Assembly (NCBI GenBank): GCA_040752415.1
Contig: JBFMGU010000023.1
Coordinates: forward strand, 349 to 64,348
Length of the DNA: 64,000 nucleotides
Direction of reading: 5' to 3'
Origin: Myxococcota bacterium
Lineage (GTDB): Bacteria > Myxococcota > JACRCW01
The notes below the pieces were generated by a model, which was given only the letters and a program-made list of their open reading frames with translations, was not told the DNA's origin and did not search any database. The position numbers were made by a program, and so were the translations under genes. Positions 7,805-48,126 of the stretch are shown here, piece by piece. Numbering within the stretch: position 1 is the first letter of the stretch; each line of letters starts with the position of its first letter.

Positions 7805-8295
<491 letters not shown>

Positions 8296-8296
<1 letters not shown>

Positions 8297-11996: not shown

Positions 11997-12541
11997 CCGC
12001 CCCCCACCTCCAGCACCTTCTGCACGGCGGTGCGGCCAGCCAGGTCGCCCGCCACGCTCCCCACCACGCTGCCAATCAGCCCCCCGGCCAGGGTTCCCAC
12101 CACCGGGACGGGAATGAGCACACTGCCCAGCGCCGCGCCGGCGTAGCCCCCACCCGCGCCGCCCACCAGGCCGGTGGCATGGCCGCCCAAGCGCGTCAGC
12201 GCCTCGCTGGGCTTGATCTGGCCTTTGACCACCCGGGCCCCCTCCCGCACGGCGTCCACGGCCAGCAGCGCCGCTCCGGCCGCCACCAGGGGCCGGCGCG
12301 CCAGGCCAGCGGCCACCTTGCCCAGGAGGTTCTCCCCGGCCCGCCGGGCCACCTCCCGTGCGGCATGCGGGGCGCCCACGCTGACCGCGGTCTTGGTGGC
12401 ACCGTCGGTGACCACGGCGCGCACGCGTTTCTGCGCCCGCTCGGGGATGCTGCCCTTCTGCGCGGGGCGGTCACGCTCGGTGGCCACCAGGTTTCCCACC
12501 GCCAGGCCGCCCTGCAGCAAGGTGTCCTTGAGGATGCTCAT
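11975..12541 (-). CDS. Hypothetical protein with a Gly-zipper-like C-terminus
   Basis: Start chosen at MSILKDTLLQGG (ATG 12541). The C-terminus GLVGGAGGGYAGAALGSVLIPVPVVGTLAGGLIGSVVGSVAGDLAG is glycine-zipper like. Confidence 0.5.
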   Translation of the reverse strand: MSILKDTLLQGGLAVGNLVATERDRPAQKGSIPERAQKRVRAVVTDGATKTAVSVGAPHAAREVARRAGENLLGKVAAGLARRPLVAAGAALLAVDAVREGARVVKGQIKPSEALTRLGGHATGLVGGAGGGYAGAALGSVLIPVPVVGTLAGGLIGSVVGSVAGDLAGRTAVQKVLEVGGGQKGSEP

Positions 12542-12661
12542 GTTCGGAAGCTCCCGGAAGGCCGGAGTCCGGCCGGCCCCCAGCCTAACAACGCGCGGGC
12601 CGCCCGTCCGGTTCTTCCCCACAGCATAGGCAGGCCCCCACCGGCACGCACCTCCCGGGGC

Positions 12662-33113: not shown

Positions 33114-36100
33114 TCAGTGGTGGTGATCGAACGCCTGGAAGACGCGGCGGATGTCCGCGGCCTGGCCGCGCACCGGCTTGCGGATGAGGTCCTGCAGGCG
33201 CAGGGGACCCTGGACCTCCACGCCTTCCATCACCGGGCGCTCGCGCGACCAGGGCACCGTGGGCACCGGCCGCTCGACAGGCTGGAAGAGCGCATCGGCC
33301 TCCGGCGCGTCGTACTGGCCGTTGCCGTCGACGTCGACGAACACGGGGTTGGTGAGCGCGAACGGCGTCACGGTGAACTTCAGCGCGGGACGGAGGTTTC
33401 CGTACGGGTTACCACCAAAGCCCAGCGAGCCGGCAATGGCGCCAATGGCGTCGTTGAACAGCAGGGACGGCTCATCCAGCGGCGTGACGACGGGGAAGAG
33501 GCTGTCCCCACCGTGGACCTCCACGTTGATGAAGCTGTCCTCACCCGCGGGCAGCACCACCCGCTCGGCGAACGGGAAGATGCGCTGGTCCACCGGGATC
33601 TCCAACGTCTTCACCGCACGCCCCCCCGCGAAGATCGTGAGCGTCGTGGGACGCACCCACGGCGCGGTGCGCACCTCACCCCGCACCTCGACCGTTCCGT
33701 CGGAATCCGGCGCCACCACGCTGCCCATGGCCCCGCCCTGGACCTGCACGGTGACGAAGGGGCCGTTGGTCATGAGCACGTCCATGGAACGCAAGCTGGA
33801 TACCAGGCCCTGCGCGTCCAGGCGCCCGGGCACGTCGCTGCCGGTGCGCAGGTAGGTGCGGGGATAGCCGGCCTCGTCGTAGAGCGCCTTGTGGCTGTCA
33901 CTGTTGGCCACGCCGGTGGGCTTCACGCCCAGGCGCAGCAGCTTGAACCAGTCGTCGATGACGCCGGGGAATGCGATCTTTCCCTCGCCGTCGCGCATGG
34001 GCTGACCTGGGGCGGGAATGGCAATCCCGGACTCCGGCAGCGGCAGCGGCGGGGGCGGGAGCGGGTCGGGCACGACGTAGGTGTGGAAGTACTCGAAGTG
34101 CTTGCCGTTGAGGACCTCCAGCGTGTCGAACTGGAAGCTGAAGTTCTCCTTGGCGAAGTTGGGATAGTTCAGGGTGTTGACGCCGAGCACCGGGTCGGTC
34201 TGCCCCTCGACGACGGCCGTCTCCTGGTCCCACACGAACTGGTTGAAATACCCGAGGATGGAGTCGCGCGGGTGGTTGACCTGCACCAGCGTGTCGGCGG
34301 GGGAGAGCTGGCCCATGCCCTTGAGCGCGTCGAAGATCTGGCCCGGCGTGCGCGAGGACCACTCGAAGGAGCCGTGCGTGGCGGGCGCGGTGTCGTAGCG
34401 CAGCGGGTAGCCGTTGAAGTGCCCCATCTCCAGCGTGGTGAGCTCCAGGCCGATGAAGCTGTTCATCCAGCTGTTGAGACCGAGCTCCGAGATCGTGGGG
34501 GCGTAGTCGGTCACGTAGTTGTGGTCGGTGCTGACCATGACCTCGATGCCCTCGGCGGCGTAGCTGACGACGCGCGGCTCGATGGCCAGGGAGCTGTCGA
34601 TGCTGTTGACGGAGTGGATGTGGAAGTCCGCGCTGACGTACCCGCTGGTGTCCACCACGCGACGCAACGTGGCCCGCACGTCGCTGACCACGCCGGGGAG
34701 GAGCTCCACCCGCGTCACGCTGAGGTCATACTCCGGGCCGCGGCTGACGAAGACGTCGTAGGTGCCGGGCTTCACGTGGGCGGACACCGCGCCGTCGTGG
34801 GTGATGAAGGCGTCCTCGATGTAGCGGCGCGTCAGCGGATCGTCGTCGTCGGGGATGAAGTCGGTGGTGCGCCAATCCTCGCCGATGCTGAGGTCAAACA
34901 GGTGGGACTTGGGATCCCGGCCCAGCTGGTCCGTGGCGTAGCTGGCCACCAGGGTGACCTTGGCGGGGAGCGGTGCGCCGTTCTCGTCGTTGATGACCAC
35001 GTTGAGGATGGCGGGCGGGGTGACCTTGATCTCCTGGAAGGTCTTGTTGCCGGCGGTGACGGTGACCTTGACAGGCGTGGTGGGGTCGCGCCCCGGCGCG
35101 GTGACGAGCACGCGGTAGTCCCCCGGCGGGAGCGGGATGGTGAAGTTGCCGCCGTCACGCGGGGTGGCCTGGCTCACCGGCTCACCATTGGCATCCAGCA
35201 CGATCACCGACGAGCCCTCGATCTCCGCAAGTGTGAGCCCGTCGAGGACGCGGCCGGTGAGCTCCCCGGTGGTGGTGCCGCGCACGCGGTAGACCTCCGA
35301 CGCAATGGACGCGATGTCCCCGTTCCCCACGACGAAGTAGCGCGTGAAGGAGAAGCTGCTCTCCTCCTCGATCTTGGGCGGGCCCTGCGTGTGGAAGACG
35401 CCGGTGAACGCGCTGGCGATGAACGGGATGAGCATGCGACCGGGCTGCGCGCGCTCCCCGTAGAGTGCGTCGTGCGCCGCCACGAAGTTCTTCTCCGGCT
35501 CCGCGGTGGGCATGAACAGGCCGTAGGAGACGTGCTCGCCCTGGCTGGCAATGAAGTCGGTGATGAGGCCGGGCAGCGCGGGCAGCGCCACCGGCTGCTT
35601 GTAGCGCTCCTCGAGCTGGTAGCGGAGGTCGAAACCGCCGTCGCCGGGGGCGAAGACGTGGTTGCCCGCGCCGAAGAGCAGCACGTCGCCAAACGGGATG
35701 TCCAGGTTGATGTCCTGGAATTTCACGCCCTGGAACTTGTGATCGGTGATGCCGTCGTTGAAGACGGTGGTGGTGACCTCGATGGTGCGACCATTCGCCG
35801 GCAGCCGGTACACGTTCTGGAAGCGCAGGTTGGCCGGGTCGACGAGGGTGTTGTTGATGGTCTCCGTCAGGAAGATGAACTGGTTGGAGTACCCGCGCAC
35901 GATCACCGCGGCGGAGCCGTCGCCCTGGTCGGGGAGGATCTCCATGGCGGGCTCACCGGTGGCCCAGGGCAACGGCTCCATGGCGACGAGGAAGAACGCC
36001 GGGAACATCTCCGCGAAGTTGTCCTGTCCATTGGGACCGTCCTCCTCGCCGGGAGGCAGGGGCCGCTGGATGTCCGCGTCGATGAGGCTGCCGCCGTAGA

Positions 36101-36314
36101 CGCCGAAGCCGCGGGAGAACCCGGGACCCTGGATGATGAACCGCGCGTCGCCGTTCTCGAGGAGGTAGTCGCCGAAATCGCCCAGCGCGTGGGGACCACC
36201 AATGAGGTCCTTCTTGCTGGCAATCTGACGGGCGCGTGCCCCCTGCTTGGCGCCGGGCGGCGTGCAGGAGAGCGCGGTGACGACGAGGGCAAGAGCGAGA
36301 TTCAGGCGGCGCAT
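33114..36314 (-). CDS. Large lipoprotein with PHP-like metal-dependent phosphoesterase motifs and carboxypeptidase-regulatory-like beta domains, hypothetical
   Basis: Start MRRLNLALALVVTALSC (ATG 36314, lipobox). It contains SADFHIHSVNSIDS...VMVSTDHNY His motifs typical of PHP/CehA-type metallo-enzymes, in 1066 aa. The + ORF 32976..36344 is antisense. Confidence 0.7.
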   Translation of the reverse strand: MRRLNLALALVVTALSCTPPGAKQGARARQIASKKDLIGGPHALGDFGDYLLENGDARFIIQGPGFSRGFGVYGGSLIDADIQRPLPPGEEDGPNGQDNFAEMFPAFFLVAMEPLPWATGEPAMEILPDQGDGSAAVIVRGYSNQFIFLTETINNTLVDPANLRFQNVYRLPANGRTIEVTTTVFNDGITDHKFQGVKFQDINLDIPFGDVLLFGAGNHVFAPGDGGFDLRYQLEERYKQPVALPALPGLITDFIASQGEHVSYGLFMPTAEPEKNFVAAHDALYGERAQPGRMLIPFIASAFTGVFHTQGPPKIEEESSFSFTRYFVVGNGDIASIASEVYRVRGTTTGELTGRVLDGLTLAEIEGSSVIVLDANGEPVSQATPRDGGNFTIPLPPGDYRVLVTAPGRDPTTPVKVTVTAGNKTFQEIKVTPPAILNVVINDENGAPLPAKVTLVASYATDQLGRDPKSHLFDLSIGEDWRTTDFIPDDDDPLTRRYIEDAFITHDGAVSAHVKPGTYDVFVSRGPEYDLSVTRVELLPGVVSDVRATLRRVVDTSGYVSADFHIHSVNSIDSSLAIEPRVVSYAAEGIEVMVSTDHNYVTDYAPTISELGLNSWMNSFIGLELTTLEMGHFNGYPLRYDTAPATHGSFEWSSRTPGQIFDALKGMGQLSPADTLVQVNHPRDSILGYFNQFVWDQETAVVEGQTDPVLGVNTLNYPNFAKENFSFQFDTLEVLNGKHFEYFHTYVVPDPLPPPPLPLPESGIAIPAPGQPMRDGEGKIAFPGVIDDWFKLLRLGVKPTGVANSDSHKALYDEAGYPRTYLRTGSDVPGRLDAQGLVSSLRSMDVLMTNGPFVTVQVQGGAMGSVVAPDSDGTVEVRGEVRTAPWVRPTTLTIFAGGRAVKTLEIPVDQRIFPFAERVVLPAGEDSFINVEVHGGDSLFPVVTPLDEPSLLFNDAIGAIAGSLGFGGNPYGNLRPALKFTVTPFALTNPVFVDVDGNGQYDAPEADALFQPVERPVPTVPWSRERPVMEGVEVQGPLRLQDLIRKPVRGQAADIRRVFQAFDHHH

Positions 36315-36533
36315 GGAGGACCCCGGAAAGCCTCCGGTTTGTAGACCCGCCGCGCGCCCGGCACCAGTCCAGCGACGTTCTCCTTTCGACATTTCCGTCC
36401 CGCGCGGCCAAGGTCACGCTTGCTGGACGCGGGCGTTGCTCGTCGTCAGCAGGGCGGATTGTCGTCGGTCTTGACAGGTAGGATGTGCGCTCCTAGCGTC
36501 GCCCACCTGTCCTCTTTCCTCGGAGAGCGTCCC

Positions 36534-36785
36534 ATGACCCGCATCAATCCGAATCAGGTTGCCAACAAGGCCGTCAGCCAGGCCCTGGACAACGGTGTCT
36601 CCGTGCAGACGCTGCGCCAGAACGGCGTGGCCCTGCTGACCAAGCAGCTGCAGATGGACGGCATCCTGCCGCCGGGGATGAGCCAGCAGCAGCTGGACCA
36701 GGTGCGCATGGCGCTGGCCCTGGCCATTGAGCAGCTTGCCGCCAACACGCAGCCCGCCGACGTCACCGGTGGTGTGACGGCCTGA
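36534..36785 (+). CDS. Small helical protein (84 aa), candidate scaffold/precursor peptide of the downstream operon
   Basis: MTRINPNQVANKAVSQALDNGVSVQTLRQNGVALL...ANTQPADVTGGVTA, ATG at 36534. A GC hairpin plus T-run follows at 36798-36838. Confidence 0.5.
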   Translation: MTRINPNQVANKAVSQALDNGVSVQTLRQNGVALLTKQLQMDGILPPGMSQQQLDQVRMALALAIEQLAANTQPADVTGGVTA

Positions 36786-36797
36786 ACCAGTTTCCTC

Positions 36798-36838
36798 CGT
36801 CGGTACCCGCCTTCCTCGCGGGTCCCGACGTTTCCCCC
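36798..36838 (+). terminator. Stem-loop plus T-run (attenuator/partial terminator) between the small protein gene and the enzyme genes
   Basis: CGTCGG(36798-803)/CCGACG(36825-830) and inner ACCCGC(36805-810)/GCGGGT(36818-823), loop CTTCCTC, followed by TTTCCCCC. Confidence 0.4.
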
Positions 36839-36852
36839 GACGGAATCCCCGC

Positions 36853-37350
36853 ATGCCAACCGAGCCGTCCGAGAAGGACCTGCAGCTTGCGCAGGACATC
36901 CTGAACATCTTTGACCAGCAGGACGAGAGCGGCGAGTACCTCTTCCCTGACGAGGAGGTCCGTCACGTCCTGCCCCTGTTGATCCTGGGCTCCGGCCTCA
37001 AGCCCGACGAGTGCAGCCCCGCGGTGCAGGAAGTGCTGGGCGAGTTTGCGCAACTGGCCGGCCTGGACATGAAGGCCTCCGCCGACGAGATCAGCGCGCA
37101 GGTGAAGGCGTTCTACGAGGAGTACCCGCCGGATGAGACGCTGCTGGGCGGCTTGCAGGCGCTGCTGCGCGAGAACGCGGCAGGAATGCAGGAGCTGGCC
37201 AACAAGGCCGCGCAGCGCGTGACGGGGCGGGAGGAAAGCAACGTTCCGCTCTCGGCGCGCAAGCCTGAGAAGGGCGCCGTCAAGGGTGGTGCGCTGGCCC
37301 GCATGAACGTCGACGGCGCGATGAAGAAGAAGGACGCGAAGAAGAAGTGA
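36853..37350 (+). CDS. Acidic helical hypothetical protein (165 aa) with a Lys-rich C-terminus
   Basis: MPTEPSEKDLQLAQDILNIFDQQDESGEYLFPDEE...KKKDAKKK. Its stop overlaps the next gene start (TGATG). Confidence 0.55.
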   Translation: MPTEPSEKDLQLAQDILNIFDQQDESGEYLFPDEEVRHVLPLLILGSGLKPDECSPAVQEVLGEFAQLAGLDMKASADEISAQVKAFYEEYPPDETLLGGLQALLRENAAGMQELANKAAQRVTGREESNVPLSARKPEKGAVKGGALARMNVDGAMKKKDAKKK

Positions 37351-38729
37351 TGTCCGTGCGCGCCCCGACGCGGCGTCTCCCCGAGGATGAAGGCCGGCTG
37401 GCCGCATTCCGCGAGGCGCTGACACGACACGAGGGCGAAGCTGTGGACGCGGTGGAACGCGCGCGCGAGTCCCTGGCCAAGCGAGACCTGCTGCTGCTGG
37501 AGAATCCCGGCGTTCCGCTCCGGCCGCTGTTCATCCCGCGCTCGCGTCTGCAGGCGATCTGCGGCGCGCTGCACCAGAACATGCTCGCCCTGGGGCGCAA
37601 GCTGGACGCGCTTCTCGACGATCCCGCTGCTCTCGAGGAGGCGCTCCCGTTGCCGCGCGAGTGGTGGGACGCCTTGGACGCGCGTGCGAGCCTGCGTCAT
37701 CCCGACTTTGGCCTGGTGCTCCGCCCCGACGGCTTCCTCTACGACGACGCGTTCCTGCTGACCGAGCCCAACATGGGCAACGGCTACCTCATCAGCTGCA
37801 CGTATCCCGACGCAGTGCACGAGGTGTTCGCAAGCTCGCCGGTGTTCGCGTCGCTGGGGTGGGACCCGCATGCGCTGGTGCAGCGGCCTTTGATGCACAT
37901 CCGGAAGATGCTGCGGCGCAAGGTTCCGTCGACGACGACGCGACCGCGCATCGCGCTGCTCTGGCATCACGGCGAGCACGAGATCATCCGTGAATGGAAC
38001 GAGCGCACCCAGGGCATCCTGCGCTACGTGCCGGAGATCCTGCGCCAGGACGGCTGGGACGTGGTGTTCGCGCACGAGGACGAGCTTTCCGTCGACGACG
38101 AGGGAAACGCGCGCCTCAAGGGCGACCAGCGCGTGGACGTGGTGTTCCAGATCCCCATCGGCACGTTCTTCCTCTACGAACCCGCGCGTTTGTCGACGGA
38201 CCTGGCGCATCTCCGCGGTCCCAGCGTGGGAAACGCGCCGCTGCTGCAGCCGCTGGTCCACGTTGGCATCGACAAGGGCACCATGCCCCTGATGGGCACG
38301 CAGGACTGCTGGCCCACGACGACACCCGACGGATTCCGCGTGGACCTGGTCCCCACGCACTACCCCACGCCTGAGCGCGCCGCGGAATACCGGATGCGCA
38401 AGGACGCCTGGGTGCTGAAGCGCAGCTTCGAGGGGAAGGATACGCACGTGGGCTGCGCCACGCATGGTCGAGTCTGGAACCGCACGCTGCAGACGGCGTT
38501 GAGCACGGCGGAGTACGTCATGCAGCCGTACGTGCCCATGAGCGTGGCGGACATTCCCGTCGTCATGGATGGGCGCGTGGAGTGGGTGGAGAGCAGCGTG
38601 GAGCTGTCCCTGCTGATCATCGACGGTGCGTTCGCCGGTGGCTTCGCGCGGTTCCTGCCGGCTGCCGACGGAGTGGTGCTCTCCCCTCCCCCGCCCGGCA
38701 TGGGATTCACCCTGGTGATGGACGTGTGA
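37350..38729 (+). CDS. Glutathionylspermidine-synthase-like / circularly permuted ATP-grasp family ligase (paralog 1)
   Basis: LLLLENPGVP resembles the LLExNADTP motif of GspS/YgiC-type enzymes, and DAWVLKRSFEGKDTHVG resembles their YVVKPxxxREGxxV ATP-binding loop. 459 aa. Confidence 0.65.
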   Translation: MSVRAPTRRLPEDEGRLAAFREALTRHEGEAVDAVERARESLAKRDLLLLENPGVPLRPLFIPRSRLQAICGALHQNMLALGRKLDALLDDPAALEEALPLPREWWDALDARASLRHPDFGLVLRPDGFLYDDAFLLTEPNMGNGYLISCTYPDAVHEVFASSPVFASLGWDPHALVQRPLMHIRKMLRRKVPSTTTRPRIALLWHHGEHEIIREWNERTQGILRYVPEILRQDGWDVVFAHEDELSVDDEGNARLKGDQRVDVVFQIPIGTFFLYEPARLSTDLAHLRGPSVGNAPLLQPLVHVGIDKGTMPLMGTQDCWPTTTPDGFRVDLVPTHYPTPERAAEYRMRKDAWVLKRSFEGKDTHVGCATHGRVWNRTLQTALSTAEYVMQPYVPMSVADIPVVMDGRVEWVESSVELSLLIIDGAFAGGFARFLPAADGVVLSPPPPGMGFTLVMDV

Positions 38730-38732
38730 TGC

Positions 38733-41183
38733 ATGCGTGAAGCGCCGCCTCTCGTCGCGTTGGAGCATGGCTGGTCCCTGTGGCCGACCTTCGAGCTTCG
38801 CGGCGCAGGCTTCCCGGTGGCGCTCCTCGATCCGCTGCATCATGCACCGCTGATTGAAGCCGTGACGACGGTGGAAGCCGCCCGTTCCCGTGCCAGTGAG
38901 CTGCGGGCCGTGGCGATGCGTGCGCTGCAAACCGCGCGGCAGTCCAGTGGCGACCGCAAGGCGTGGAACGCGTTCACCGACGAGGTGCGGCGCGGCACCC
39001 GAAACGTGACGACGGGGAGTCCGGAGGTGGACCCTGCCCTCCGCGCCCTCGATCACGCCCGCGACGAGCTGGCCAACGCGGAAGCGGCGGTGGAATCCGC
39101 GTGGGCCGCGTGCCTCGAGACCACCGACGCGAAGCTGCGGGAATGCGCGCTGTCGTCGGATTTTCGCCGGGCCGTGTTGTTGCAGAACCGCGGCGCGCTT
39201 TCCGGCGGCATCGACGCGTGGCTGCGCACAACACCGGGTACCGAGGATCACACCGCGCGGCGTGCGCGTCTCGCCGTCACCAGCTACCTGCAGCGCTACA
39301 CGACGAAGAATGACACAGTGGGCTTCTTTGGTCCGGTGGGCTGGGGCCATTTTGTCGACGACGCCAACGCGCTGACCCAGCGGGCGGGCCCCGCGCTCGT
39401 GGACCGGACTGCGGTGCACCTGGAGCCGTGGGCTGTTGCCGCGGTGGCGGATGCGGTGCTTCCGTCGGTGATGGACCGCCTGGTTCCTACGCTGTCACCC
39501 CGCGTGCGCCTCGAGGGAACCGAGCTTCACGGCGTTCCCACCCGCTCGCTGCGAGGGACACGCACGCTCACGCCGGCCATGCGCGAGTTGCTGGAACGGG
39601 TGGACGGTCGGCGGACCTACGCGGAGATCGCCGGTGACGACGAGAAACGCGCACGGGTACAGGAGCTGGTGCAGCAAGGGGTCGTCCGGCTGCGACTTGA
39701 TGTGCAGGTCACCACGTCTCCACAGGACGCACTGTGTCGGCAGCTGGACGCGCTCGGCGCGGTCGAGGCGAGGAACACGGTCCGCAGCTTCACCGGCGCC
39801 CTCGATGCGGTGCAGGCCCACGTCCACGACGACAAATCGCTGGGCCCTGCGCTGCAGACCCTGGACGAGCGCTTTGCCTCCATCACCGGGCGCGAGGCCA
39901 CGCGACATGCCGGTCAGACCTACGGGAGCCGCACACTGATCTACGTGAACTGTCGGCGAGATCACGAGCTGCATCTGGGCAAACCGGTCCTGGCCGCATT
40001 GCGTTCACCGATGAGCTTGCTTCTCGTCGCTGCGCGGTGGTTCACCTACGAGGTCTCCCGCGGCTTCCTGCGCGAGCTGCACAAGATCCACGCCAGCCTC
40101 TCGCGCGTCATGGGCCCGCGCGTTCCGCTGCTGCACGTCTATCACCGTCTCATTCCGCTCTTCGCGCATCCTCCCGCCACGTTCATCGCCGACGCGCGTC
40201 GACGCACGGAAGCCCGCTGGACCGAAGTGCTGGCGCTGCCGGATGGGGAGGCACACGTCGTGGAGCTGGATGCGTCCACGCTGGGCCCGCGCGTCCGGGA
40301 TGCCTTTGCTGCTCCGCACCCGGGCATGCCCAGCGCGCGACACCACTGCCCGGATGTCCTGTTCTGTCGTCGTGAGGATGGCTCCTTGATGCCGGTTCTC
40401 GGCGAGATCCACGCCGGTGTGAACACGCTCGCCGTGCTGCAAGCGGTGGACATGTCGCGGGATGCGGACGAGTTGCGGGCGCTCTACCGTCGGGACCTTC
40501 CGCCGCCGGTGGTCTCCGAGCTGCAGCACGAGGACTACGCACTGTGCGCGCATGACTCCCTGCTCGACGCGGGCGATCTCCACGTGGACACGGGCTCTCG
40601 TTACATCTCGTGGCTTCCGCCGGAGCGCACGGTGCTGCTGTCGGACCTGGATCTCGTCGTAGAGGACGGGTTCCTGCGTGTGCAGTCCAACCGCGACGGC
40701 TCCGTATTCGACGCGCTCCACCTGCTCGAGCGCATGGTCCGCCTCAACGCCACCACCGAGTTCCACCTGCCCGTGCGCGCCCCGCACCAGCCGCGTGTCG
40801 TCGTCAATGGCGTGGTGCTGATCCGGGAGACGTGGACCCTGCAGCGGGACGCGTTCGAGTCGTTGGTCGACGCCACCGGTCCCGCGCGCATGCGGGCGGC
40901 GCACGCGTTGCGCCACACGCACGGAATGCCGCGTCACCTGTTCGCGCGAACGCCCGGGGAGCACAAGCCGCTGTACGTCGACGTGGAATCTCCGGCGAGC
41001 CTGGAGGTGCTGGTGCGTGCGCTGCGCGAGGCGCCCTGGGTCAAGCTCTCGGAGATGCTCCCCGCGCCGGAGCACGCGTGGCTTCTGGATGCGCGTGGGC
41101 AGCGGTATGTGTCGGAGTGTCGGATGGTGGCGGTGGACCCGGTGCCCGCGCGCCCGATCTCCGTGGAGGAAGCGCTGGCATGA
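38733..41183 (+). CDS. LanB N-terminal (glutamylation) domain-like protein lacking an elimination domain: candidate PEARL (peptide-aminoacyl-tRNA ligase)
   Basis: 816 aa. The N-terminus WSLWPTFELRGAGFPVALLDPL and the internal TKNDTVGFFGPVGWGHF resemble the Lant_dehydr_N conserved core. No SpaB_C-like C-terminal domain or partner ORF is present nearby. Confidence 0.65.
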   Translation: MREAPPLVALEHGWSLWPTFELRGAGFPVALLDPLHHAPLIEAVTTVEAARSRASELRAVAMRALQTARQSSGDRKAWNAFTDEVRRGTRNVTTGSPEVDPALRALDHARDELANAEAAVESAWAACLETTDAKLRECALSSDFRRAVLLQNRGALSGGIDAWLRTTPGTEDHTARRARLAVTSYLQRYTTKNDTVGFFGPVGWGHFVDDANALTQRAGPALVDRTAVHLEPWAVAAVADAVLPSVMDRLVPTLSPRVRLEGTELHGVPTRSLRGTRTLTPAMRELLERVDGRRTYAEIAGDDEKRARVQELVQQGVVRLRLDVQVTTSPQDALCRQLDALGAVEARNTVRSFTGALDAVQAHVHDDKSLGPALQTLDERFASITGREATRHAGQTYGSRTLIYVNCRRDHELHLGKPVLAALRSPMSLLLVAARWFTYEVSRGFLRELHKIHASLSRVMGPRVPLLHVYHRLIPLFAHPPATFIADARRRTEARWTEVLALPDGEAHVVELDASTLGPRVRDAFAAPHPGMPSARHHCPDVLFCRREDGSLMPVLGEIHAGVNTLAVLQAVDMSRDADELRALYRRDLPPPVVSELQHEDYALCAHDSLLDAGDLHVDTGSRYISWLPPERTVLLSDLDLVVEDGFLRVQSNRDGSVFDALHLLERMVRLNATTEFHLPVRAPHQPRVVVNGVVLIRETWTLQRDAFESLVDATGPARMRAAHALRHTHGMPRHLFARTPGEHKPLYVDVESPASLEVLVRALREAPWVKLSEMLPAPEHAWLLDARGQRYVSECRMVAVDPVPARPISVEEALA

Positions 41184-42385
41184 GCGAGAACCGCAGTCGC
41201 GCCGCCCGCGTGGTGGCCGAGGCCACGCCGCACTACCTGGAAGCGCGTCGACGTGGGCTGATGCACGTGACGCTGGAGAAGCGCGACGGCAAACGCGTGA
41301 CGCTCCCGGGCGGACGCACTGTCACGGAGTTCATCAACTGCTCCTACCTGGGACTGGACACGCATCCCGGCGTGGTGCGCGCTGCGCAGAAAGTGGTGGA
41401 GGACTGGGGCGTGCACTTCTGCTGCGCGCGCAGCCGTTTCTCCATTGGTCCCAACCGTGAGCTCGAGGAGGCGTTGGGGAGCTGGATGGGCGGGCGCGCC
41501 ATCACGTTCCCGTCGGTGACGGCGACGCATCTCAGTGTGATGCCACTCCTGGCGTCGGGCGCGCTGTATGGCGACGGACAGCCCATGCGCCTGGTGTTCG
41601 ACCGCTTCGCGCACGCGTCCATGGCGTCGTTGAAGGCGATGCTGCGTGAGCACGCGCGCGTGGAGACCATTGAACACAACGACCTGGATGCGCTGGAAAC
41701 GCAGATGCAGGACGCGCGCTCCGTCGGGGAGAGGCCGGTCTACATCGCGGACAGCGTGTACAGCATGGGCGGGCGGTGTCCGCTGACGGAGGTCCTCTCG
41801 CTGGCCCAGCGCTACGACGCGCGCCTGTATCTCGACGACGCACACGGCACCTCGATCTTCGGTCCGCAGGGTCAGGGCCCGGTGTTCGAGGCGCTGGGTG
41901 GGAAGATCCCGGAGCACGTGGTCTTCACGTACTCACTGTCCAAGGGTTTCGGCACCAACGGCGGCGGGGTGCTCCTCCCGACGAGGGCGCAGGAAGACGT
42001 GGTGCGCCTGTTCGGGCAGACCTACGCGTTCAGCGCCTCGCTGGATTTCTCGATCATCGCCGCGGCGCAGGCGTCCCTCGCGCTTCACGTCGACGGGACG
42101 GTGGAACGGTTGCAGCGCACGCTGCGTGAACGGGTGGCCTTGTTTGATTCGCTGGTGCCCGGACGCCAGGAGGGGTTCAGCCCCATCCGCATGGTGCGTA
42201 TGCGCACCCCGGAGCACGCCCTCGACGTGGCGGAGCGGTTGATCGGGCTCGGGTACTTCGTGACGGTGGCCATGTTCCCCGTGGTCCCACGTGACGCTCC
42301 GCAGCTCCGCCTCTGTCTTTCCGTGGGACACTCGGAAGGCGACATCCGCGGGCTGGTTGCCGCGCTGAAGGAAGCCGGTGCATGA
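41180..42385 (+). CDS. PLP-dependent alpha-oxoamine synthase family enzyme (8-amino-7-oxononanoate synthase / serine palmitoyltransferase-like)
   Basis: FINCSYLGL...DDAHGTSIFG...FTYSLSKGFGTNGGGV, the PLP-lysine motif of the AONS family. ATG at 41180 overlaps the previous stop (ATGA). Confidence 0.85.
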   Translation: MSENRSRAARVVAEATPHYLEARRRGLMHVTLEKRDGKRVTLPGGRTVTEFINCSYLGLDTHPGVVRAAQKVVEDWGVHFCCARSRFSIGPNRELEEALGSWMGGRAITFPSVTATHLSVMPLLASGALYGDGQPMRLVFDRFAHASMASLKAMLREHARVETIEHNDLDALETQMQDARSVGERPVYIADSVYSMGGRCPLTEVLSLAQRYDARLYLDDAHGTSIFGPQGQGPVFEALGGKIPEHVVFTYSLSKGFGTNGGGVLLPTRAQEDVVRLFGQTYAFSASLDFSIIAAAQASLALHVDGTVERLQRTLRERVALFDSLVPGRQEGFSPIRMVRMRTPEHALDVAERLIGLGYFVTVAMFPVVPRDAPQLRLCLSVGHSEGDIRGLVAALKEAGA

Positions 42386-43635
42386 CCACGCTGCGCAACG
42401 TCGTCACGCGTTCCGCGGCGGCCATTGTTGACGCGCTGGAGAACGCGCGCACCCAGCACCAACTTGGCGGGCTGCCCATGCTTGCCGCGCCCGTGGTGGT
42501 CCCACGCCAGGAGCGCACCCGACTGGCGCGGATTGCCGAGCTGTTGCGCACCGCGTTGCTCCGACTGCGTGGCGACGATCCCTGGCCCGGTGACGTCCCA
42601 CGCCCACCCCACTTTGACGACCTGCTCTCGTCGGAGCCGCGCAACCTTCCTCCGCTTGGCGCATGCCGCTTTGACGCCCTCTACGATCCCGCGAGCGGCG
42701 CCCTGTCCTTCGTCGAGGTGCAGGCGGGAGATCCTTCGGGTGCGCCGTGGGTGGACGGCATTGTCGCGGCGCTCTCGTCGGTGCACGTGCTGGAACCCTG
42801 GATGAAGCACGCGGATCACCTGATCCCGGCGCACCTGCGTCACGTCCAGCGCACCTATCGCGAAGTGTGGCGCGGCCAGGATGACCCTCTCGTCGCGTTC
42901 ATCAACGAGGACGGCAGCTTCGTCCGCAGCGACCACGAGCTGTGGGCCCACCTGTTCCGTCGTCACGGAGTGCGCGCCGTCTGTGCGGATCCCCGCGCGT
43001 TCACCTGGGACGGCGCTCACGCGCACCTCGACGGGCACACGGTGGACCTGGTGATCCGCGACTCCCACGACGAGCTCACCATCTCCCCCGGTCCCGACGC
43101 CACCCGCCCCTTACGCTCCGCGCTGCAGGCCGGTCTGCCGCGGTTCAATCCGTTCGCGGACGTCTGGTTCGACGACAAGACCTGCTTCGTGGACCTGTGG
43201 CACCACGCGGACCGCTTTCCCGCCGAGGAGCGCGAGCTCATCCGACGACACATTCCCCGCACGGAGCGTGTGACGCCGGACCTCACGGAGTACCTGCGCC
43301 AACACCGGGAAGACTGGGTGCTGAAGCCCGCCGATGGTTACGGCGGCTTTGGCATCGTGGTGGGCCGTGACGTCGACGATTCGCGCTGGAGCGCGGCCCT
43401 GGAGGAGGCACTGCGCAAGCGCACGGTGGCGCAGTTCTACGTGGACGTGCCGCGCGTGGCGGTGGCGCGAACCCGGGCTCACGACGTGGAATGGCGCGAC
43501 CAGCACCTCACGGTGAGCCTGTGGTGCCACGGCGGGGAGTTCTCAGGCGCCTACGCGCGCGCGGGGGACGGCAAGGTGGTGAACGTGCACCAGGGCGGCG
43601 GAATCGGCCCCGTGGTCTTCACCGACGAGTGGTGA
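42382..43635 (+). CDS. Glutathionylspermidine-synthase-like / circularly permuted ATP-grasp family ligase (paralog 2)
   Basis: SFVEVQAGDPSGAP and EDWVLKPADGYGGFGIVVG ... VVNVHQGGGIGPV motifs. ATG overlaps the upstream stop (ATGA). 417 aa. Confidence 0.65.
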   Translation: MTTLRNVVTRSAAAIVDALENARTQHQLGGLPMLAAPVVVPRQERTRLARIAELLRTALLRLRGDDPWPGDVPRPPHFDDLLSSEPRNLPPLGACRFDALYDPASGALSFVEVQAGDPSGAPWVDGIVAALSSVHVLEPWMKHADHLIPAHLRHVQRTYREVWRGQDDPLVAFINEDGSFVRSDHELWAHLFRRHGVRAVCADPRAFTWDGAHAHLDGHTVDLVIRDSHDELTISPGPDATRPLRSALQAGLPRFNPFADVWFDDKTCFVDLWHHADRFPAEERELIRRHIPRTERVTPDLTEYLRQHREDWVLKPADGYGGFGIVVGRDVDDSRWSAALEEALRKRTVAQFYVDVPRVAVARTRAHDVEWRDQHLTVSLWCHGGEFSGAYARAGDGKVVNVHQGGGIGPVVFTDEW

Positions 43636-45387
43636 TCACTCCGCGCCCATCCACGCCTTGCGCAGCTCCACCTGCTCGGCGGGAGCGTTCTCACGACGCT
43701 TGAGGTACGCACAGGTCTGCGGCGCGGGCGCCAACGTCACCGTCGCGGTGCGCAGCTCATCACGACGGAAGAAGTGCACCTCCTTGGCCTCACCCGGCTT
43801 CATCTCCTCCAGGCGCGCCATGAAGTTCCCGTCGGCAACCCGCCAGCCACCGAGCGCCACCAGCTGATCTCCCGGCCCCACGCCCGCCGTCGCCGCCGGA
43901 CCACCCGGGTGCACGTTCTGCACGGTGCCGTCGCGCTTGATGGCTGCGCCGAAGAACGGCCGGGAGGCACCGTTGCCCTTGCCGGGGGTACCGCCTTTGT
44001 CGTCGGCGCCTTCGGGCGCGCGCGTGAGATACTCCAGCCCGACGGAAGCAAGGTGCTCGGCCAGCGGCAGCTCCTCACGCGAACGCACCGTCAGGTCAAA
44101 GAACGACTTCAGCGAGCGACCGGCAACCTCCGCCGCCGCGGCTTCCACCTCGCCCTCCTCGAGCCCCTCGCCGCGGTCCTGCGTCCACTTCCACAGGAGG
44201 CGCATGACGTCGTCAAGAGACTTCTTCCCGCTGCTCTCCTTGCGCAGCAGCAGGTCCAGGCACAACGCCACCAGCTCACCCTTCAGGTAGTAGCTGATGG
44301 TGCTGTTCACGGTGTGCTCGTCCTGCCGGTAGTACTTCACCCACGCATCCAGCGACGACTCCTCGAGGCTGTGCGCCTTGCGCCCCGGCGTCTGGTTGAG
44401 CTGCGTGCTGAGCTCACCAAGCACGGTGAGGTAGCGGTCCGCCGTCATCAACCCCGCGCGACGCGTGTTGAGGTTGTCGTAGTAGCTGGTGAAGCCTTCC
44501 ATGGCCCACAGCAGCCTCGTCGGGTTTTCGCGCGTGTAGTCGTAGGGGCTGAACGCCTTGGGCTTGATGCGCTTGACGTTCCAGAGATGGAAGTGCTCGT
44601 GCGTCACCAGCGTGAGGAAGCTCTCGTATTCCTTCTCAGGACGGAACGCGAAGCGGGGATAGAGCAGCGCCGTGGAGTCGCGGTGCTCCAGGCCGCCGCG
44701 GCCGCTGTCGGTGAGATGCGTGATGAACAGGTAGCGCTGGTAGGGCAGCCCGCCGAACACCTGCGCGTTCTGCTCGACGAGCTTCGGCAGATCCGCCACC
44801 AGCTTCTGCTCGTCCTCGTTGCCGCGGTTCCACAGCACCAGCTCATGCGGAATGCCGCGCACGGAGAATGACAGCGTGCGGTGCGTCCCCATCTCCACGG
44901 GACAGTCCACGAGGTGATGGAAATCCTCCGCCTCGAACTGGTTCTCCGACGTGGAAGGCAACGTGGTGGCCACCTTCCATCCCGCGGGCGGATGGATGGA
45001 CAGCGTGCAGCGACGTGCCTCCGCGCCCTCCGGCACCATGAACAGGGACACGCCGTTGAAGAAGCCGTGCGTGTTGTCCAGGTGCGCGGTGCGCACGGTC
45101 AGCTCATGCGCGTAGACGCGGTAGCTGACGGTGAGGTCGCCGTTGGCGTCGGAACGCAGCTCCCACTGGTGCGGGGAGACCTTGGTGGCGGTGACGTTGC
45201 CGCCCGCGCGCGTGGCCTGCAGTCCCTCCACGTGTCGACCGTGCTCACGCAGCAGGTAGCTCCCCGGCGTCCAGCGCGGGAAGTTGAGTCGCACCACGGA
45301 GGGCGCGTCCTTCAGCAGGAGCGTGACGTGGAAGAGGTGGGAGTTGGGGTCCGGGACGTGGACGCTGTACGCAAGCGGTGCGGGCAT
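43636..45387 (-). CDS. M61 family glycyl aminopeptidase with a C-terminal PDZ domain
   Basis: HEHFHLWN (HExxH) with downstream Glu, plus a PDZ-like C-terminus (…HPGGPAATAGVGPGDQLVALGG…). The stop abuts the stop of the upstream + operon with 0-bp spacing. Confidence 0.85.
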   Translation of the reverse strand: MPAPLAYSVHVPDPNSHLFHVTLLLKDAPSVVRLNFPRWTPGSYLLREHGRHVEGLQATRAGGNVTATKVSPHQWELRSDANGDLTVSYRVYAHELTVRTAHLDNTHGFFNGVSLFMVPEGAEARRCTLSIHPPAGWKVATTLPSTSENQFEAEDFHHLVDCPVEMGTHRTLSFSVRGIPHELVLWNRGNEDEQKLVADLPKLVEQNAQVFGGLPYQRYLFITHLTDSGRGGLEHRDSTALLYPRFAFRPEKEYESFLTLVTHEHFHLWNVKRIKPKAFSPYDYTRENPTRLLWAMEGFTSYYDNLNTRRAGLMTADRYLTVLGELSTQLNQTPGRKAHSLEESSLDAWVKYYRQDEHTVNSTISYYLKGELVALCLDLLLRKESSGKKSLDDVMRLLWKWTQDRGEGLEEGEVEAAAAEVAGRSLKSFFDLTVRSREELPLAEHLASVGLEYLTRAPEGADDKGGTPGKGNGASRPFFGAAIKRDGTVQNVHPGGPAATAGVGPGDQLVALGGWRVADGNFMARLEEMKPGEAKEVHFFRRDELRTATVTLAPAPQTCAYLKRRENAPAEQVELRKAWMGAE

Positions 45388-45456: not shown

Positions 45457-46746
45457 TCACGCCGGCTTCACGGGCTGCTTCACCGACGTGGCAATGAACG
45501 CGCTGAGCAGGAGGATGAGGCCACCGGCAAGGTACGGCGCCTGGTAGCCCAGCTGCTCGAAGAGGATTCCACCGAAGACCGGCCCCATGGCCCGCGCCAA
45601 CGCCGCCAGCGACTGCCCGAGGCCAAGCGTGCCGCCCTGCTCGGTGGGATCCGCACTCTGGGAGAGCAGGCTGCTCATCGACGGATTCACGAGCCCATTG
45701 GCGCTGCTCATGAGGAGCACCACCGGGAACGTCATGGCGTAGCTCGGCGCAAAGGGCAGCAGCGCGAACGCCAACGCGTTGCACGCGAGCCCGGTGATGA
45801 GCAGCTTCCGCTCACCGAAGCGTCGCGCCAGCTTGCCAATGAGCCCGCCCTGGATGATCGCGGAGATCACACCCACGAGGACGAGGAAGAGCCCGGTGAG
45901 CTTGGATGCTTCCGCCGCCGCCGCGGGGGTTCCCGGCGTGGCCGCCACAAAGCGCCGCTCGACGAGAAGCCCGAAGGTGGCCTCCATCTTGGACCACCCC
46001 AGCAGCACCACGAAATACAGCGCGAGCAACACGCCCACGTTGGGCCGCTGGCTGGCGCGCTTGAGCGCATCCAGGGACAACCGTCGTCGTGACGTGGGCG
46101 CGGGGTGCGTCCCCTTCTTGAGGCTCTCCGGGAGCACCACCAACGCGAACACGAAGTCGACGAGCGCGAGCCCCCCCGCCACGAAGGCCGGCAGCGACGC
46201 GTGATTGAACAGCGCGTTCGGATCACCGCCGCTGAGGTGCTCCCCCAACGACGCGGCGGCCGCGCCCACACCGGGCCCGATGATGAACCCGAAGCCGAAT
46301 GCCATGCCGAGGAGGCCCATGCCCTTGGCGCGGTTCTCGGGCGTGGTGACGTCGGCAATGTAGGCCTGCGCGGTGGGAATGTTGGCGTTGCCAATGCCGG
46401 AGAGGATGCGACACGCGAACAGGAGCGCCAGGCTGTTCACCAGGCCCAGCAGCCCGTAGCCCACCGCGCTCATCAACACGCTGACCAGGATCACCGGGCG
46501 TCGACCAATGCGGTCGGAGAGCCGCCCCCACGCCGGCGCGAACACGAACTGCATCAACGAGTACGACGCCCCCAGCGCCGTCACGACGGTGGGCGTGGCG
46601 CCGAACTGCTCCGCGTAGAACGGGAGGATGGGGATGATGATCCCGAAGCCCAGCAGGTCCAGGAACACCGTGAAGAAGATGACGAACAGCGGGCTGCGTC
46701 CGACGGGAGCAGCACCCGGGGCAGACTTCGTTTCGGTCGCGACCAC
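45457..46746 (-). CDS. MFS transporter (Tet/TCR-like, 12 TM)
   Basis: …SPLFVIFFTVFLDLLGFGIIIPILPFYA…GRLSDRIGRRPV… MFS motif A. Start assigned to a GTG near 46746; the track ORF 45457..46953 has an Arg-rich 5' extension. Confidence 0.8.
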   Translation of the reverse strand: MVATETKSAPGAAPVGRSPLFVIFFTVFLDLLGFGIIIPILPFYAEQFGATPTVVTALGASYSLMQFVFAPAWGRLSDRIGRRPVILVSVLMSAVGYGLLGLVNSLALLFACRILSGIGNANIPTAQAYIADVTTPENRAKGMGLLGMAFGFGFIIGPGVGAAAASLGEHLSGGDPNALFNHASLPAFVAGGLALVDFVFALVVLPESLKKGTHPAPTSRRRLSLDALKRASQRPNVGVLLALYFVVLLGWSKMEATFGLLVERRFVAATPGTPAAAAEASKLTGLFLVLVGVISAIIQGGLIGKLARRFGERKLLITGLACNALAFALLPFAPSYAMTFPVVLLMSSANGLVNPSMSSLLSQSADPTEQGGTLGLGQSLAALARAMGPVFGGILFEQLGYQAPYLAGGLILLLSAFIATSVKQPVKPA

Positions 46747-47010
46747 GACGGGAAGGTAGACCAGAGCAGGGGTGGCCAGCGCAAGCACGCGCCGCGACGG
46801 TCCGGTCGCCGTTCGTCGACGAGAGGCCGGATGCGCGCGGCATCGTCCCGACGTCGACGCGAGCCCGTCGGCCCTCACCCCACCGTTCCCGTTCGCGCGT
46901 CGAGGCCAGCGTTGCGGCGACGGATGCGGCGAATCCGCGTTGGTTCTCCGCAAGAGGTGCGGATAATCGGTTGAGGTTTCTCCGCCCCCGGGGAATATTC
47001 ACCGCACACC

Positions 47011-48126
47011 ATGCGGAGAAGCGGCTACATCTGGGACCTGGACACTTGGCCGACCTTCCGATGGGAGGCCGCGTCCTTGTTGGAGCCTCTTGCGGAAGCG
47101 CGCCATCTGCAGGGGCGTCTGCTGGGCCGCATGTCCGAGCTGGGATTCGACCTCCAGCGTGAGGCCCACGTCCAGGCCCTGACGACGGAAGCCGTGAAGA
47201 CCTCCGAGATCGAGGGTGAGCACCTGAACGTGGAGAGCGTGCGCTCGTCGCTGGCGCGGAGGCTGGGCGTTCCCTGGGCGGGCTCCGAGGTGGTGGACCG
47301 CAAGGTGGAAGGCGTCGTGGAGATGATGCTCGACGCCACCAGCAACTTCGCCGCCCCGCTGACCGCGCGCCGGCTGTTCGGCTGGCATGCCGCGCTGTTC
47401 CCGACGGGATACTCCGGGATGCACCGGATCATCGTCGGTGGCTGGCGTGATGATCGGGAAGGTCCGATGCGCGTGGTGTCCGGGCCGCTGGGCCATCAAC
47501 GCGTGCACTACGAAGCACCACCCGCCACGCGCCTCGACGAGGAAATCAACCGGTTCCTGGAGTGGTTCAACGCGCCCATGGTGGGCGACGGTGTGCTCCG
47601 CAGCGGAATCGCGCACCTGTGGTTCCTGACCATTCATCCCTTTGAGGACGGAAACGGACGCATCGCGCGTGCGATTGCCGACCAGGCGCTCGCCCAATGC
47701 GAGGGTGCCGCCAACAGGTTCTACAGCGTCTCACGGCAGATCAACGCGGAGCGCAAGACCTACTACGACGTGCTCGAGCGCACCCAGCAGGGCGACGGCG
47801 ACATCACCGCGTGGCTGCAGTGGTACCTCGCGTGCTTCTCCCGCGCCCTGACCAGCGCGGACGTGGTGGCGGGTCAGGTCTTGCGCAAGGCTTCGTTCTG
47901 GAAGCGTCACGCGGACAAATCCATCACCGAGCGGCAGCGAAGGGTGCTCAACCGCTTCCTCGACGGATTCGAAGGCAAGCTCACGGCAAGAAAGTGGGCC
48001 GCGTTGGGGAAATGTTCCGTCGACACCGCGCAAAGGGACATCCAGGCGCTGCTGGAGCTGGACATGCTCCGCAGACTCCCAGGCGGCAGCAAGAACACCG
48101 CCTATGAGCCGGCATGGGAGACCTGA
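47011..48126 (+). CDS. Fic/DOC family protein
   Basis: HPFEDGNGRIARA (the Fic HPFx[DE]GNGR motif) plus a C-terminal winged-helix-like region. Confidence 0.9.
   Translation: MRRSGYIWDLDTWPTFRWEAASLLEPLAEARHLQGRLLGRMSELGFDLQREAHVQALTTEAVKTSEIEGEHLNVESVRSSLARRLGVPWAGSEVVDRKVEGVVEMMLDATSNFAAPLTARRLFGWHAALFPTGYSGMHRIIVGGWRDDREGPMRVVSGPLGHQRVHYEAPPATRLDEEINRFLEWFNAPMVGDGVLRSGIAHLWFLTIHPFEDGNGRIARAIADQALAQCEGAANRFYSVSRQINAERKTYYDVLERTQQGDGDITAWLQWYLACFSRALTSADVVAGQVLRKASFWKRHADKSITERQRRVLNRFLDGFEGKLTARKWAALGKCSVDTAQRDIQALLELDMLRRLPGGSKNTAYEPAWET

Follow-up and report, generated by a model that had tools for sequence, protein, structure and literature searches.

Few pathways built around peptide aminoacyl-tRNA ligases (PEARLs) and their peptide substrates, the pearlins, have been characterised; these make 3-thia-amino acids and pyrroloiminoquinones on carrier peptides, and a further PEARL, associated with a non-ribosomal peptide synthetase (NRPS) and polyketide synthase (PKS) system, has been described (PMC11212132). 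The pearlin pathways comprise TglA/TglB, which yields 3-thiaglutamate, TmoA/TmoB, which yields 3-thiahomoleucine, and AmmA and BhaA, which serve together with PEARLs in the formation of pyrroloiminoquinones (PMC9303977, PMC11117183, PMC11962472). Neither the amino acid specificity of a PEARL nor the chemistry that follows its action can yet be predicted from sequence. Here we consider a 64,000-nucleotide stretch of contig JBFMGU010000023.1 from a Myxococcota bacterium (the window; 68% GC), in which six co-directional genes of the forward strand (36534-43635), framed by lists of open reading frames (ORFs) and by GC content at third codon positions (GC3), form an operon with a small gene at its head. 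We propose that this small gene, gene 1, probably encodes a carrier or substrate protein. That it is the carrier of a PEARL operon is the best overall explanation that we can offer for the locus, and one that we moderately favour; whether it is specifically the PEARL-type enzyme, gene 4, that would extend it seems to us evenly balanced.

The locus has much in common with the pearlin pathways. In both, a small ribosomal peptide is encoded beside an enzyme that has only the N-terminal LanB domain, and this peptide ends, after a helix, in a conserved segment with a free carboxylate. The enzyme also carries the PEARL residues of the ATP site and of the site for the tRNA CCA end, and has an internal segment resembling the recognition element (RRE) of peptides that ribosomes make and that are modified after translation (RiPPs). 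The locus differs in having a larger candidate carrier that is predicted to be folded, a whole set of tailoring enzymes and an extra acidic helical protein, and in lacking a conserved protease or transporter. None of the PEARL clusters described in the literature that we retrieved contains two ATP-grasp paralogs resembling glutathionylspermidine (GSP) synthase, a pyridoxal 5'-phosphate (PLP) enzyme resembling 8-amino-7-oxononanoate synthase (AONS), or an acidic helical protein, and literature searches that paired PEARLs with oxoamine synthases, ATP-grasp enzymes or myxobacteria yielded no account of a cluster of this kind.

The amino-group carrier proteins (LysW/ArgW and Vzb22) offer a second comparison. 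They have a zinc-ribbon body and use ATP-grasp enzymes of the RimK/LysX type. They are small carriers, as gene 1 would be, in which a C-terminal extension is attached to a globular body, and the block that they hold in amide linkage is modified by ATP-grasp and PLP enzymes; the tether is made through the gamma-carboxylate of a C-terminal glutamate (PMC9303977, discussion). Gene 1, in contrast, ends in alanine, has no cysteine and is encoded in a cluster with a PEARL, and C-terminal glutamate occurs only in the distant type-B relatives described below.

Gene 1 and its invariant C-terminus

Gene 1 encodes 83 residues ending in …TQPADVTGGVTA. All of the aligned homologs (16/16; 33-59% identity) end in Gly-Val-Thr-Ala (GVTA) immediately before the stop codon. 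A second motif, LA(A/S)NT, is also invariant in the 16, and the 5-12 residues that separate the two motifs vary in length and sequence. The four more distant small members recovered by an exhaustive search with a hidden Markov model (HMM) end in PGVTA, AGVTA, DGVTA and GGATA. Third positions of the GVTA codons differ from locus to locus (GGT GTG ACG GCC, GGC GTC ACC GCC or GGC GTC ACG GCG), and selection therefore acts on the peptide and not on an overlapping DNA signal. An earlier, sequence-only reading of this DNA had put gene 1 forward as a candidate scaffold or precursor peptide, with conservation of its C-terminal residues across orthologous clusters as one of the checks. The alignment shows such conservation, and the idea of a scaffold for the LanB-like enzyme gains from the invariant GVTA end, from the place of gene 1 at the head of a conserved cassette and from the PEARL-type residues of the enzyme.

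Judged by its Shine-Dalgarno-like motif, its GC3 of 0.81, its homologs and the ratio of nonsynonymous to synonymous substitution rates (dN/dS), gene 1 is a genuine coding gene. The dN/dS value of 0.14 comes from the sole unsaturated pair (loci L004 and L007), the other pairs being uninterpretable because a strong GC3 bias saturates the synonymous sites. The family is rare and unannotated, with about 20 sequence clusters and no match of gene 1 in Pfam or NCBIfam. A first search of 5.8 billion proteins returned 3 matches and a profile search 17; the exhaustive HMM search, which covered 1.84 billion representatives, returned 11, 2 of them spurious longer proteins. Nothing in the JGI metagenomes matched a degenerate DNA pattern for LAANT…GVTA-stop, and members of the family turned up only in data from NCBI, ENA and Logan. 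P0057 and P0058 were set aside as spurious profile matches; by eye, one sequence resembles a fasciclin-like protein and the other a protein of peptidoglycan-binding repeats. P0003 was rejected as a chimeric or broken copy. It lies on a short ENA contig (L002, 1-569), where the part that matches gene 1 (77% identity across residues 29-72) is joined to an N-terminus that is unrelated and of transposase-like appearance (MGCRYAGIDWASDKHDV…), and has a different C-terminus, as in a chimeric assembly or a disrupted copy.

The AlphaFold2 (AF2) model built from the family alignment (overall predicted local distance difference test score, pLDDT, 76) has helices at residues 6-19, 24-42 and 51-72 (pLDDT 70-84), which residues 73-83 follow as a disordered tail (pLDDT <50). 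This matches the binding mode of BhaA-Ala, a helix followed by an extended tail (PMC11962472). A Foldseek search of the model against the PDB returned noise only (all E >2), and hence no fold match.

The PEARL-type enzyme and its partner genes

Gene 4 encodes the LanB-like enzyme, and matches Lant_dehydr_N in Pfam (PF04738, E 1.6e-22). No match to Lant_dehydr_C was found by Pfam or NCBIfam in any of the six operon proteins, so that the elimination domain is neither fused to gene 4 nor encoded separately in the operon. A single-sequence phmmer search of gene 4 against the PDB gave nothing, and only the family profile, made from 22 relatives, gave matches: it found the split LanB TbtB (6ec7) at E 3.6e-20, and a PqqD-like RRE segment inside the protein at E 0.01.

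The residues that distinguish PEARLs are known in some detail. In TglB, D542, E801 and R803 (D558, E813 and R815 in BhaB7) form the site of ATP binding and carboxylate phosphorylation; in BhaB7, E575 binds a second Mg, R715 and F755 stack on the adenine, Y205 and R208 bind the CCA end of the tRNA, and R34 (R10 in TglB) is required for aminoacyl transfer (PMC11962472). In split LanBs of the dehydratase type the PEARL-specific Asp/Arg is reported to be replaced by Tyr/Leu (PMC11117183). In gene 4, D541 (within SPDV), E795 and R797 (within SE-x-R) are invariant in the 22 relatives, down to 28% identity, as are Y185 and R188 within YLQRY-x2-KNDT-x-GFFGP. R23 is nearly invariant within R-G-A-G-F-P, and E558/H560 (within LGE-x-H), R698 and F737 are conserved, being invariant or nearly so. 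Numbering and spacing are near-identical to those of TglB and BhaB7 (541 to 558 in gene 4, 558 to 575 in BhaB7, and E-x-R in both). Since residues, numbering and spacing correspond closely to the TglB and BhaB7 sites, we class gene 4 as a putative PEARL-type enzyme, and every sequence-level PEARL feature that we tested for is present in it.

Gene 5 matches Aminotran_1_2 in Pfam and PRK07505 in NCBIfam (374 bits against a cutoff of 342); the bioF match (E 1.6e-48) does not reach its cutoff. Genes 3 and 6 are full-length paralogs of one another (hhalign probability 99.4%, E 1e-21, 383 columns; BLASTP E 7e-9), and recognisable ATP-grasp signatures (VLKPADGYGGFG and NVHQGGG) are kept only in gene 6. 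In Pfam several gene 6 members gave sub-threshold matches only, all of them to ATP-grasp families (CP_ATPgrasp_2, GSP_synth, YheCD and GSH-S_ATP), and the three best PDB profile matches, all non-significant, were 3n6x, a putative GSP synthase (E 0.053), the ATP-grasp ligase Cp1B and propionyl-CoA carboxylase alpha. The gene 3 profile has no meaningful match of its own in Pfam or the PDB, and it may be that gene 3 is a copy that has diverged or is non-catalytic.

Gene 2 had been put forward in the sequence-only reading as of the right size for a scaffold peptide or a RiPP-recognition partner, and neither role gains support here. The N-terminal ~110 residues are conserved (AQ-x2-L-x2-FD-x-QD-x2-G-x3-F-x-D-x2-VRH-x-LPL…), and the C-terminal tail is variable in both length and sequence (KKKDAKKK, GGGWAPKR, …KKKAGDDEG), for which reason gene 2 does not look like a substrate with a conserved C-terminus; it is probably an accessory or adaptor protein. 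A recognition role, for which a winged helix of about 90 residues with a three-stranded sheet would be expected, gains nothing from the single-sequence AF2 model, which is all-helical with a disordered tail and of low confidence (pLDDT 55), and the PqqD-like segment lies inside gene 4 instead. Gene 2 has no Pfam or NCBIfam match, and residues 7-60 (36853-37020), with the conserved FD-x-QD-x2-G-x3-F-x-D-x2-VRH segment, give a faint profile match to calmodulin EF-hand pairs (E ~0.3) in which the loop is non-canonical. We also observed that the gene 2 tails of L004 (2867-3256), L005 (137-529) and L007 (4122-4511) end in GGGWAPKR or GSGWSPKK, and that these resemble the KPGW(S/T/K)PG found near the end of type-B small peptides (L012, L048 and L098).

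Relatives of the cassette and the readings of gene 1

The order of the six genes (g1-g2-g3-g4-g5-g6, here type A) recurs in independent metagenome contigs, namely L001/L003 (from the same sample), L004, L005/L006, L007/L008 and L009/L010/L016, and the gene 4 homologs in these are 41-54% identical to the window copy; L014 and L015 hold the 5' part of the cassette. Gene 1 comes first at every recovered type-A locus in which the contig extends to the cassette's 5' end. Flanking genes vary from locus to locus, and the unit is therefore the six genes, with neither a protease nor an exporter.

Wider relatives were drawn from an alignment-based scan across GTDB and a metagenome scan with gene 3; a single-protein scan of GTDB genomes with gene 4 had yielded nothing, whereas the alignment-based scan did yield relatives. 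They come from Myxococcota, Acidobacteriota/Thermoanaerobaculia and one alphaproteobacterial metagenome-assembled genome. Type-A order is found again in L018/L097 and L095, and a different one, type B (g5-g6-small-(g2)-g3-g4), in L012/13, L034, L048, L098 and L101. L057 (also L068 and L074) has g5 with g3-g4, g6 not being detected, and L100 has g2-g5-g6-g3-g4. In the 11 of these loci that were examined a small ORF lies directly 5' of g2 or g3, with none in L100 or in the truncated L096. The C-termini of these small proteins are specific to clades (GPVA in L095, GIGLLE in L018/L097, and RPLE, KPVE or RDSE in type B) and co-vary with the divergence of the enzymes. A small gene that accompanies the enzyme set, and whose C-terminus changes with the enzymes, thus presents a substrate- or carrier-like pattern. 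The type-B ORFs encode basic peptides of 48-60 residues that are rich in Pro, Lys and Thr, often overlapping the g3 start by 4 nucleotides, and these may be a second substrate class with C-terminal Glu. The L098 protein links both kinds, having an N-terminal part that is helical and gene 1-like, a linker rich in Pro, Thr and Lys, and then …KPGWSPGNKPGRPLE.

Most other LanB-like relatives (26-37% identity) are without g3, g5 and g6 and stand in other contexts, for example beside an NRPS in L011. There a LanB-like gene of 35% identity (10001-12574, +) adjoins a large NRPS gene (from 12646) and a luciferase-like gene, and a gene 6-like ATP-grasp homolog lies near it on the opposite strand (7392-8783, -). 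From these neighbours it follows that the ATP-grasp/PEARL pairing also exists in an NRPS context.

In the pathway that we favour, gene 1 would be a carrier whose body is made of three helices and whose flexible tail of 11 residues presents a free Gly-Val-Thr-Ala carboxylate at its end. Gene 4 would phosphorylate the carboxylate of Ala83 with ATP and condense the activated carboxylate with an aminoacyl-tRNA, leaving the peptide one residue longer. The amide-tethered residue might then be remodelled by genes 3 and 6, as amide ligases working through acyl-phosphates, and by gene 5, through a PLP-dependent condensation of the Claisen type, whilst gene 2, as a helical acidic accessory or adaptor, would aid the recognition of the helical body of gene 1. 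Because no protease is conserved in the cassette, the product may remain on the protein; it may otherwise be freed by a housekeeping peptidase. One possibility for the chemistry is that acyl-phosphate activation and the formation of a C-C bond by the PLP enzyme would lead to an alpha-amino-ketone at the C-terminus or to an amino acid with an extended chain. A full version of this scheme would have a folded 83-residue carrier extended at its GVTA carboxylate, the added residue rebuilt by two GSP-synthase-like ligases and an alpha-oxoamine synthase in an uncharacterised PEARL pathway, the product possibly being the modified protein itself, and P-[L/V]-E peptides forming a second substrate class; taken as a whole we offer this as tentative, and consider it unlikely.

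Several points weigh against the carrier reading. The conserved cassette has no protease or transporter, unlike the characterised pearlin clusters (PMC9303977); no dedicated product-releasing protease was found in it, and the M61 peptidase at 43636-45387 is without a counterpart elsewhere. At 83 residues and with a folded body, gene 1 exceeds both TglA, given as 50 residues in PMC9016710, and BhaA, which has ~40 residues by the numbering used in PMC11962472. The correspondence between gene 4 and TglB/BhaB was drawn from motif, spacing and numbering and not from a direct alignment. Type-B loci such as L012 contain PEARL-like, ATP-grasp-like and AONS-like genes and have no GVTA protein. The ATP-grasp-like enzymes could equally act on the C-terminus. 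Finally, the carrier model does not allow the appended amino acid to be predicted.

The ATP-grasp point can be developed into an account of its own, in which gene 1 keeps its role as C-terminal substrate or carrier and it is genes 3 and 6 that work on its tail, in the manner of LysW/LysX or RimK, and the PEARL-like enzyme works later or on another carboxylate. Genes 3 and 6 are indeed ATP-grasp- or GSP-synthase-like, in every cassette examined g2 or g3 has a small ORF directly upstream that is often translationally coupled to it, and the type-B peptides end in Glu as amino-group carrier proteins do (PMC9303977, discussion). However, gene 4 keeps all of the residues needed for carboxylate phosphorylation and for binding the tRNA CCA end, every characterised PEARL has as its target either the C-terminus of a peptide or a vinylogous carboxylate (PMC11962472, PMC11117183), and gene 3 has no ATP-grasp family match of its own. 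We therefore regard this account, the one that survives best among the competitors, as rather improbable.

Lower again in our estimation stands the idea that gene 1 is no substrate at all, being instead a small helical protein with an accessory, regulatory or immunity function that uses its C-terminus as a docking motif for another protein. It would sit well with the folded three-helix body of the model, with a cassette that has no dedicated protease and with related enzyme sets that have no GVTA protein. Against it, conservation is concentrated in the last four residues before the stop codon, after a variable linker, which is typical of a free-carboxylate substrate, and the cassette relatives examined, except L100 and the truncated L096, have a small ORF with a clade-specific C-terminus. 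A lanthipeptide-type system of class I, with gene 1 as the LanA and Thr82 glutamylated and dehydrated by the LanB-like enzyme, is highly improbable: although Pfam and NCBI annotation call gene 4 a 'lantibiotic dehydratase' and Thr82 is invariant in the GVTA clade, the operon has neither an elimination domain nor a LanC by Pfam and NCBIfam, gene 1 has no cysteine and so no LanA core, gene 4 has the PEARL-specific Asp/Arg pair and not the Tyr/Leu of dehydratases, and those gene 1 relatives whose last residues are LLE, PLE or PVE lack Ser and Thr close to the C-terminus.

If gene 1 is a carrier in a PEARL pathway, then the cassette, which combines a PEARL-type enzyme with ATP-grasp ligases, a PLP enzyme that forms C-C bonds and a four-residue C-terminal tag, could reveal new tRNA-dependent chemistry at protein C-termini. 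A further use could be in protein labelling, with the GVTA tail and the sister clade's P-L/V-E tails serving as tags in the way shown for BhaA (PMC11962472). Beside this carrier chemistry, the question of the hairpin that follows gene 1 is a minor one.

The hairpin after gene 1 and the layout of the operon

Attenuator hairpins that follow precursor genes are known in lanthipeptide and other RiPP operons, for example after nisA. The element in the window is similarly a stem-loop that directly follows a small first gene and precedes enzyme genes packed closely together, but differs in having no real U-tract and in being absent from five orthologous lineages. It occupies the gap between genes 1 and 2 (67 nucleotides), which is the sole sizeable spacer of the operon, since the other four junctions are 4-nucleotide overlaps (g2-g3, g4-g5 and g5-g6) or a 3-nucleotide gap (g3-g4). 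The two small ORFs and the nested stem-loop reported in the sequence-only reading proved exact when re-read, with an outer stem of CGTCGG (36798-36803) and CCGACG (36825-36830) and an inner stem of ACCCGC (36805-36810) and GCGGGT (36818-36823).

The description of this element as a hairpin with a T-run holds for its first part. The hairpin is both the minimum free energy (MFE) and the centroid structure, at -22.2 kcal/mol, and none of 200 dinucleotide shuffles was as stable (0/200; z -3.43 for the 67-nucleotide spacer and -4.88 for its 51-nucleotide core). The supposed run has only three T's (UUUCCCCC), no U-rich tract, and it was not called by a terminator scan that requires 5 or more T's among 8 bases. 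Among all 45-nucleotide segments of the window (mean -13.4, standard deviation 4.2, 1st percentile -23.7) the hairpin falls at about the 2nd-3rd percentile. It is thus real and goes beyond what composition would give, but it is not extraordinary. No Rfam family matched it at the gathering or at a relaxed threshold, and its arm is not a repeated element within the window.

Comparison between lineages gives a mixed picture (Table 1). Stable hairpins occur in four of the five long spacers, those of the window, L004, L009 and L095, and share no sequence; that of L095 looks like a true intrinsic terminator. The fifth long spacer, in L097, is without significant structure. In L001, L005, L007/8, L014 and L015, where the spacer measures 0-16 nucleotides or the genes overlap, there is no such hairpin, and the close relatives L004 and L007 differ by the entire spacer. 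Judging from these loci, the hairpin does not belong to what is conserved in the system, although most of the lineages with a spacer have one. The pattern is compatible with a lineage-specific tuning of the ratio of gene 1 to the enzymes, and equally with a structure that stabilises the 3' end or is neutral.

The stable hairpin would most plausibly uncouple gene 1 from the enzyme genes, either through partial termination or as a shield for the 3' end of a processed gene 1 transcript. The attenuator of the sequence-only reading is therefore plausible as a lineage-specific feature, the stem being real and hairpins being found in most of the long spacers, and has lost ground on its UUU tail and on the five orthologous lineages that have no such hairpin. 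That the hairpin raises the transcript level of gene 1 relative to that of the enzymes seems to us possible but doubtful. A carrier that is recycled would have no obvious need for an excess of its mRNA. The likelier reading at present, though one that we favour by little, is that the hairpin has no attenuator role, being a stabiliser of the 3' end or of processing, or a neutral GC-rich structure in a lineage-specific insertion, with the ratio set by translation. In addition to the short tail, and to a spacer that is present in full in L004 and missing in its close relative, this reading draws on the many coding windows of the genome that fold as stably and on canonical terminators, of which 4 were found against 4.5 expected by chance between 33000 and 46000. 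It has more difficulty with hairpins of z <= -2.6 in so many of the long spacers, with the proper U-tract of L095 and with the position of the element in the only sizeable gap of the operon. The missing U-tract is not decisive either way, because in that region canonical (L-shaped) terminators are no commoner than chance. Canonical sigma-70 promoters are not enriched there either (0 found, 0.5 expected), and consensus scans are consequently uninformative in this part of the window.

Table 1. Features of the operon and its surroundings in the window, with the g1-g2 spacers and type-B small ORFs of related loci
Feature	Position or length	Strand	Basis or remark
Tentative promoter	36471-36499	+	TTGACA 36471-36476, 17-nt spacer, TAGCGT 36494-36499; in 141-nt divergent intergenic region; read by eye
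Shine-Dalgarno-like GGAGAG	36522-36527	+	6 nt 5' of gene 1 ATG
Gene 1 (g1), 83-residue candidate carrier/scaffold peptide	36534-36785	+	ATG at 36534, TGA at 36783-36785; translation, homologs, alignment, AF2 model
Codons for invariant G80-V81-T82-A83	36771-36782	+	Predicted site of enzymatic extension/modification
Interrupted 12-bp GC-rich stem-loop (6+6 bp, 7-nt loop)	36798-36830	+	12 nt after gene 1 stop; MFE and centroid
Post-stem tract TTTCCCCC	36831-36838	+	Three U's only; not a canonical terminator tail
Gene 2 (g2), 165 residues, acidic helical N-domain (~110 residues) and variable basic tail	36853-37350	+	Alignment; low-confidence model
Gene 3 (g3), 460 residues, divergent ATP-grasp-like paralog of gene 6	37347-38729	+	hhalign; start overlaps gene 2 stop
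Gene 4 (g4), 816 residues, small LanB-type enzyme with PEARL-type residues	38733-41183	+	Pfam; family profile; invariant columns
Gene 5 (g5), 401 residues, alpha-oxoamine synthase (BioF/Kbl/SPT)-like PLP enzyme	41180-42385	+	Pfam, NCBIfam
Gene 6 (g6), 417 residues, divergent ATP-grasp/GSP-synthase-like amide ligase	42382-43635	+	Sub-threshold Pfam and PDB profile matches
Upstream neighbour, divergent	33114-36392	-	5' side of the operon
M61 glycyl aminopeptidase with PDZ domain, convergent	43636-45387	-	Ends at the base directly after the gene 6 stop, no intergenic gap
Major facilitator superfamily (MFS) transporter	45457-46953	-	Beyond the M61 peptidase
g1-g2 spacer, window	67 nt		Hairpin, z -3.4
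g1-g2 spacer, L004	57 nt		8-bp perfect stem GGGACGCG/CGCGUCCC, z -2.8
g1-g2 spacer, L009	56 nt		Two stems, -33 kcal/mol, z -2.6
g1-g2 spacer, L095	98 nt		15-bp stem then UGGUGUUUUG (proper U-tract), z -3.8
g1-g2 spacer, L097	70 nt		No significant structure
g1-g2 spacer, L001	7 nt		No hairpin
g1-g2 spacer, L005	4 nt		No hairpin
g1-g2 spacer, L007/L008	0 nt		No hairpin
g1-g2 spacer, L014	16 nt		No such hairpin, 4-bp stem only
g1/g2 junction, L015	overlap		No hairpin
Spacer, L098	3 nt		No hairpin
Type-B small ORF, L012	5065-5220		
Type-B small ORF, L034	8452-8598		
Type-B small ORF, L048	8294-8509		
Type-B small ORF, L057	8305-8481		
Type-B small ORF, L098	5278-5649		
Type-B small ORF, L101	~1230-1679		

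The promoter assigned ahead of gene 1 is tentative. The consensus scan did not call it, its -10 element having 3/6 matches, and L001 has TTGACA-17-TATCCA at the matching relative position. The M61 peptidase and the MFS transporter that follow the operon were tempting candidates for the releasing protease and the exporter of the cluster, and were rejected, as neither was found at any other locus; the upstream gene likewise has no counterpart at the other loci, bar two weak, distant matches. Some 3 kb downstream of the operon (47011-48126, +) lies a gene for a Fic/DOC protein with an N-terminal DUF4172, which is seemingly unrelated to it.

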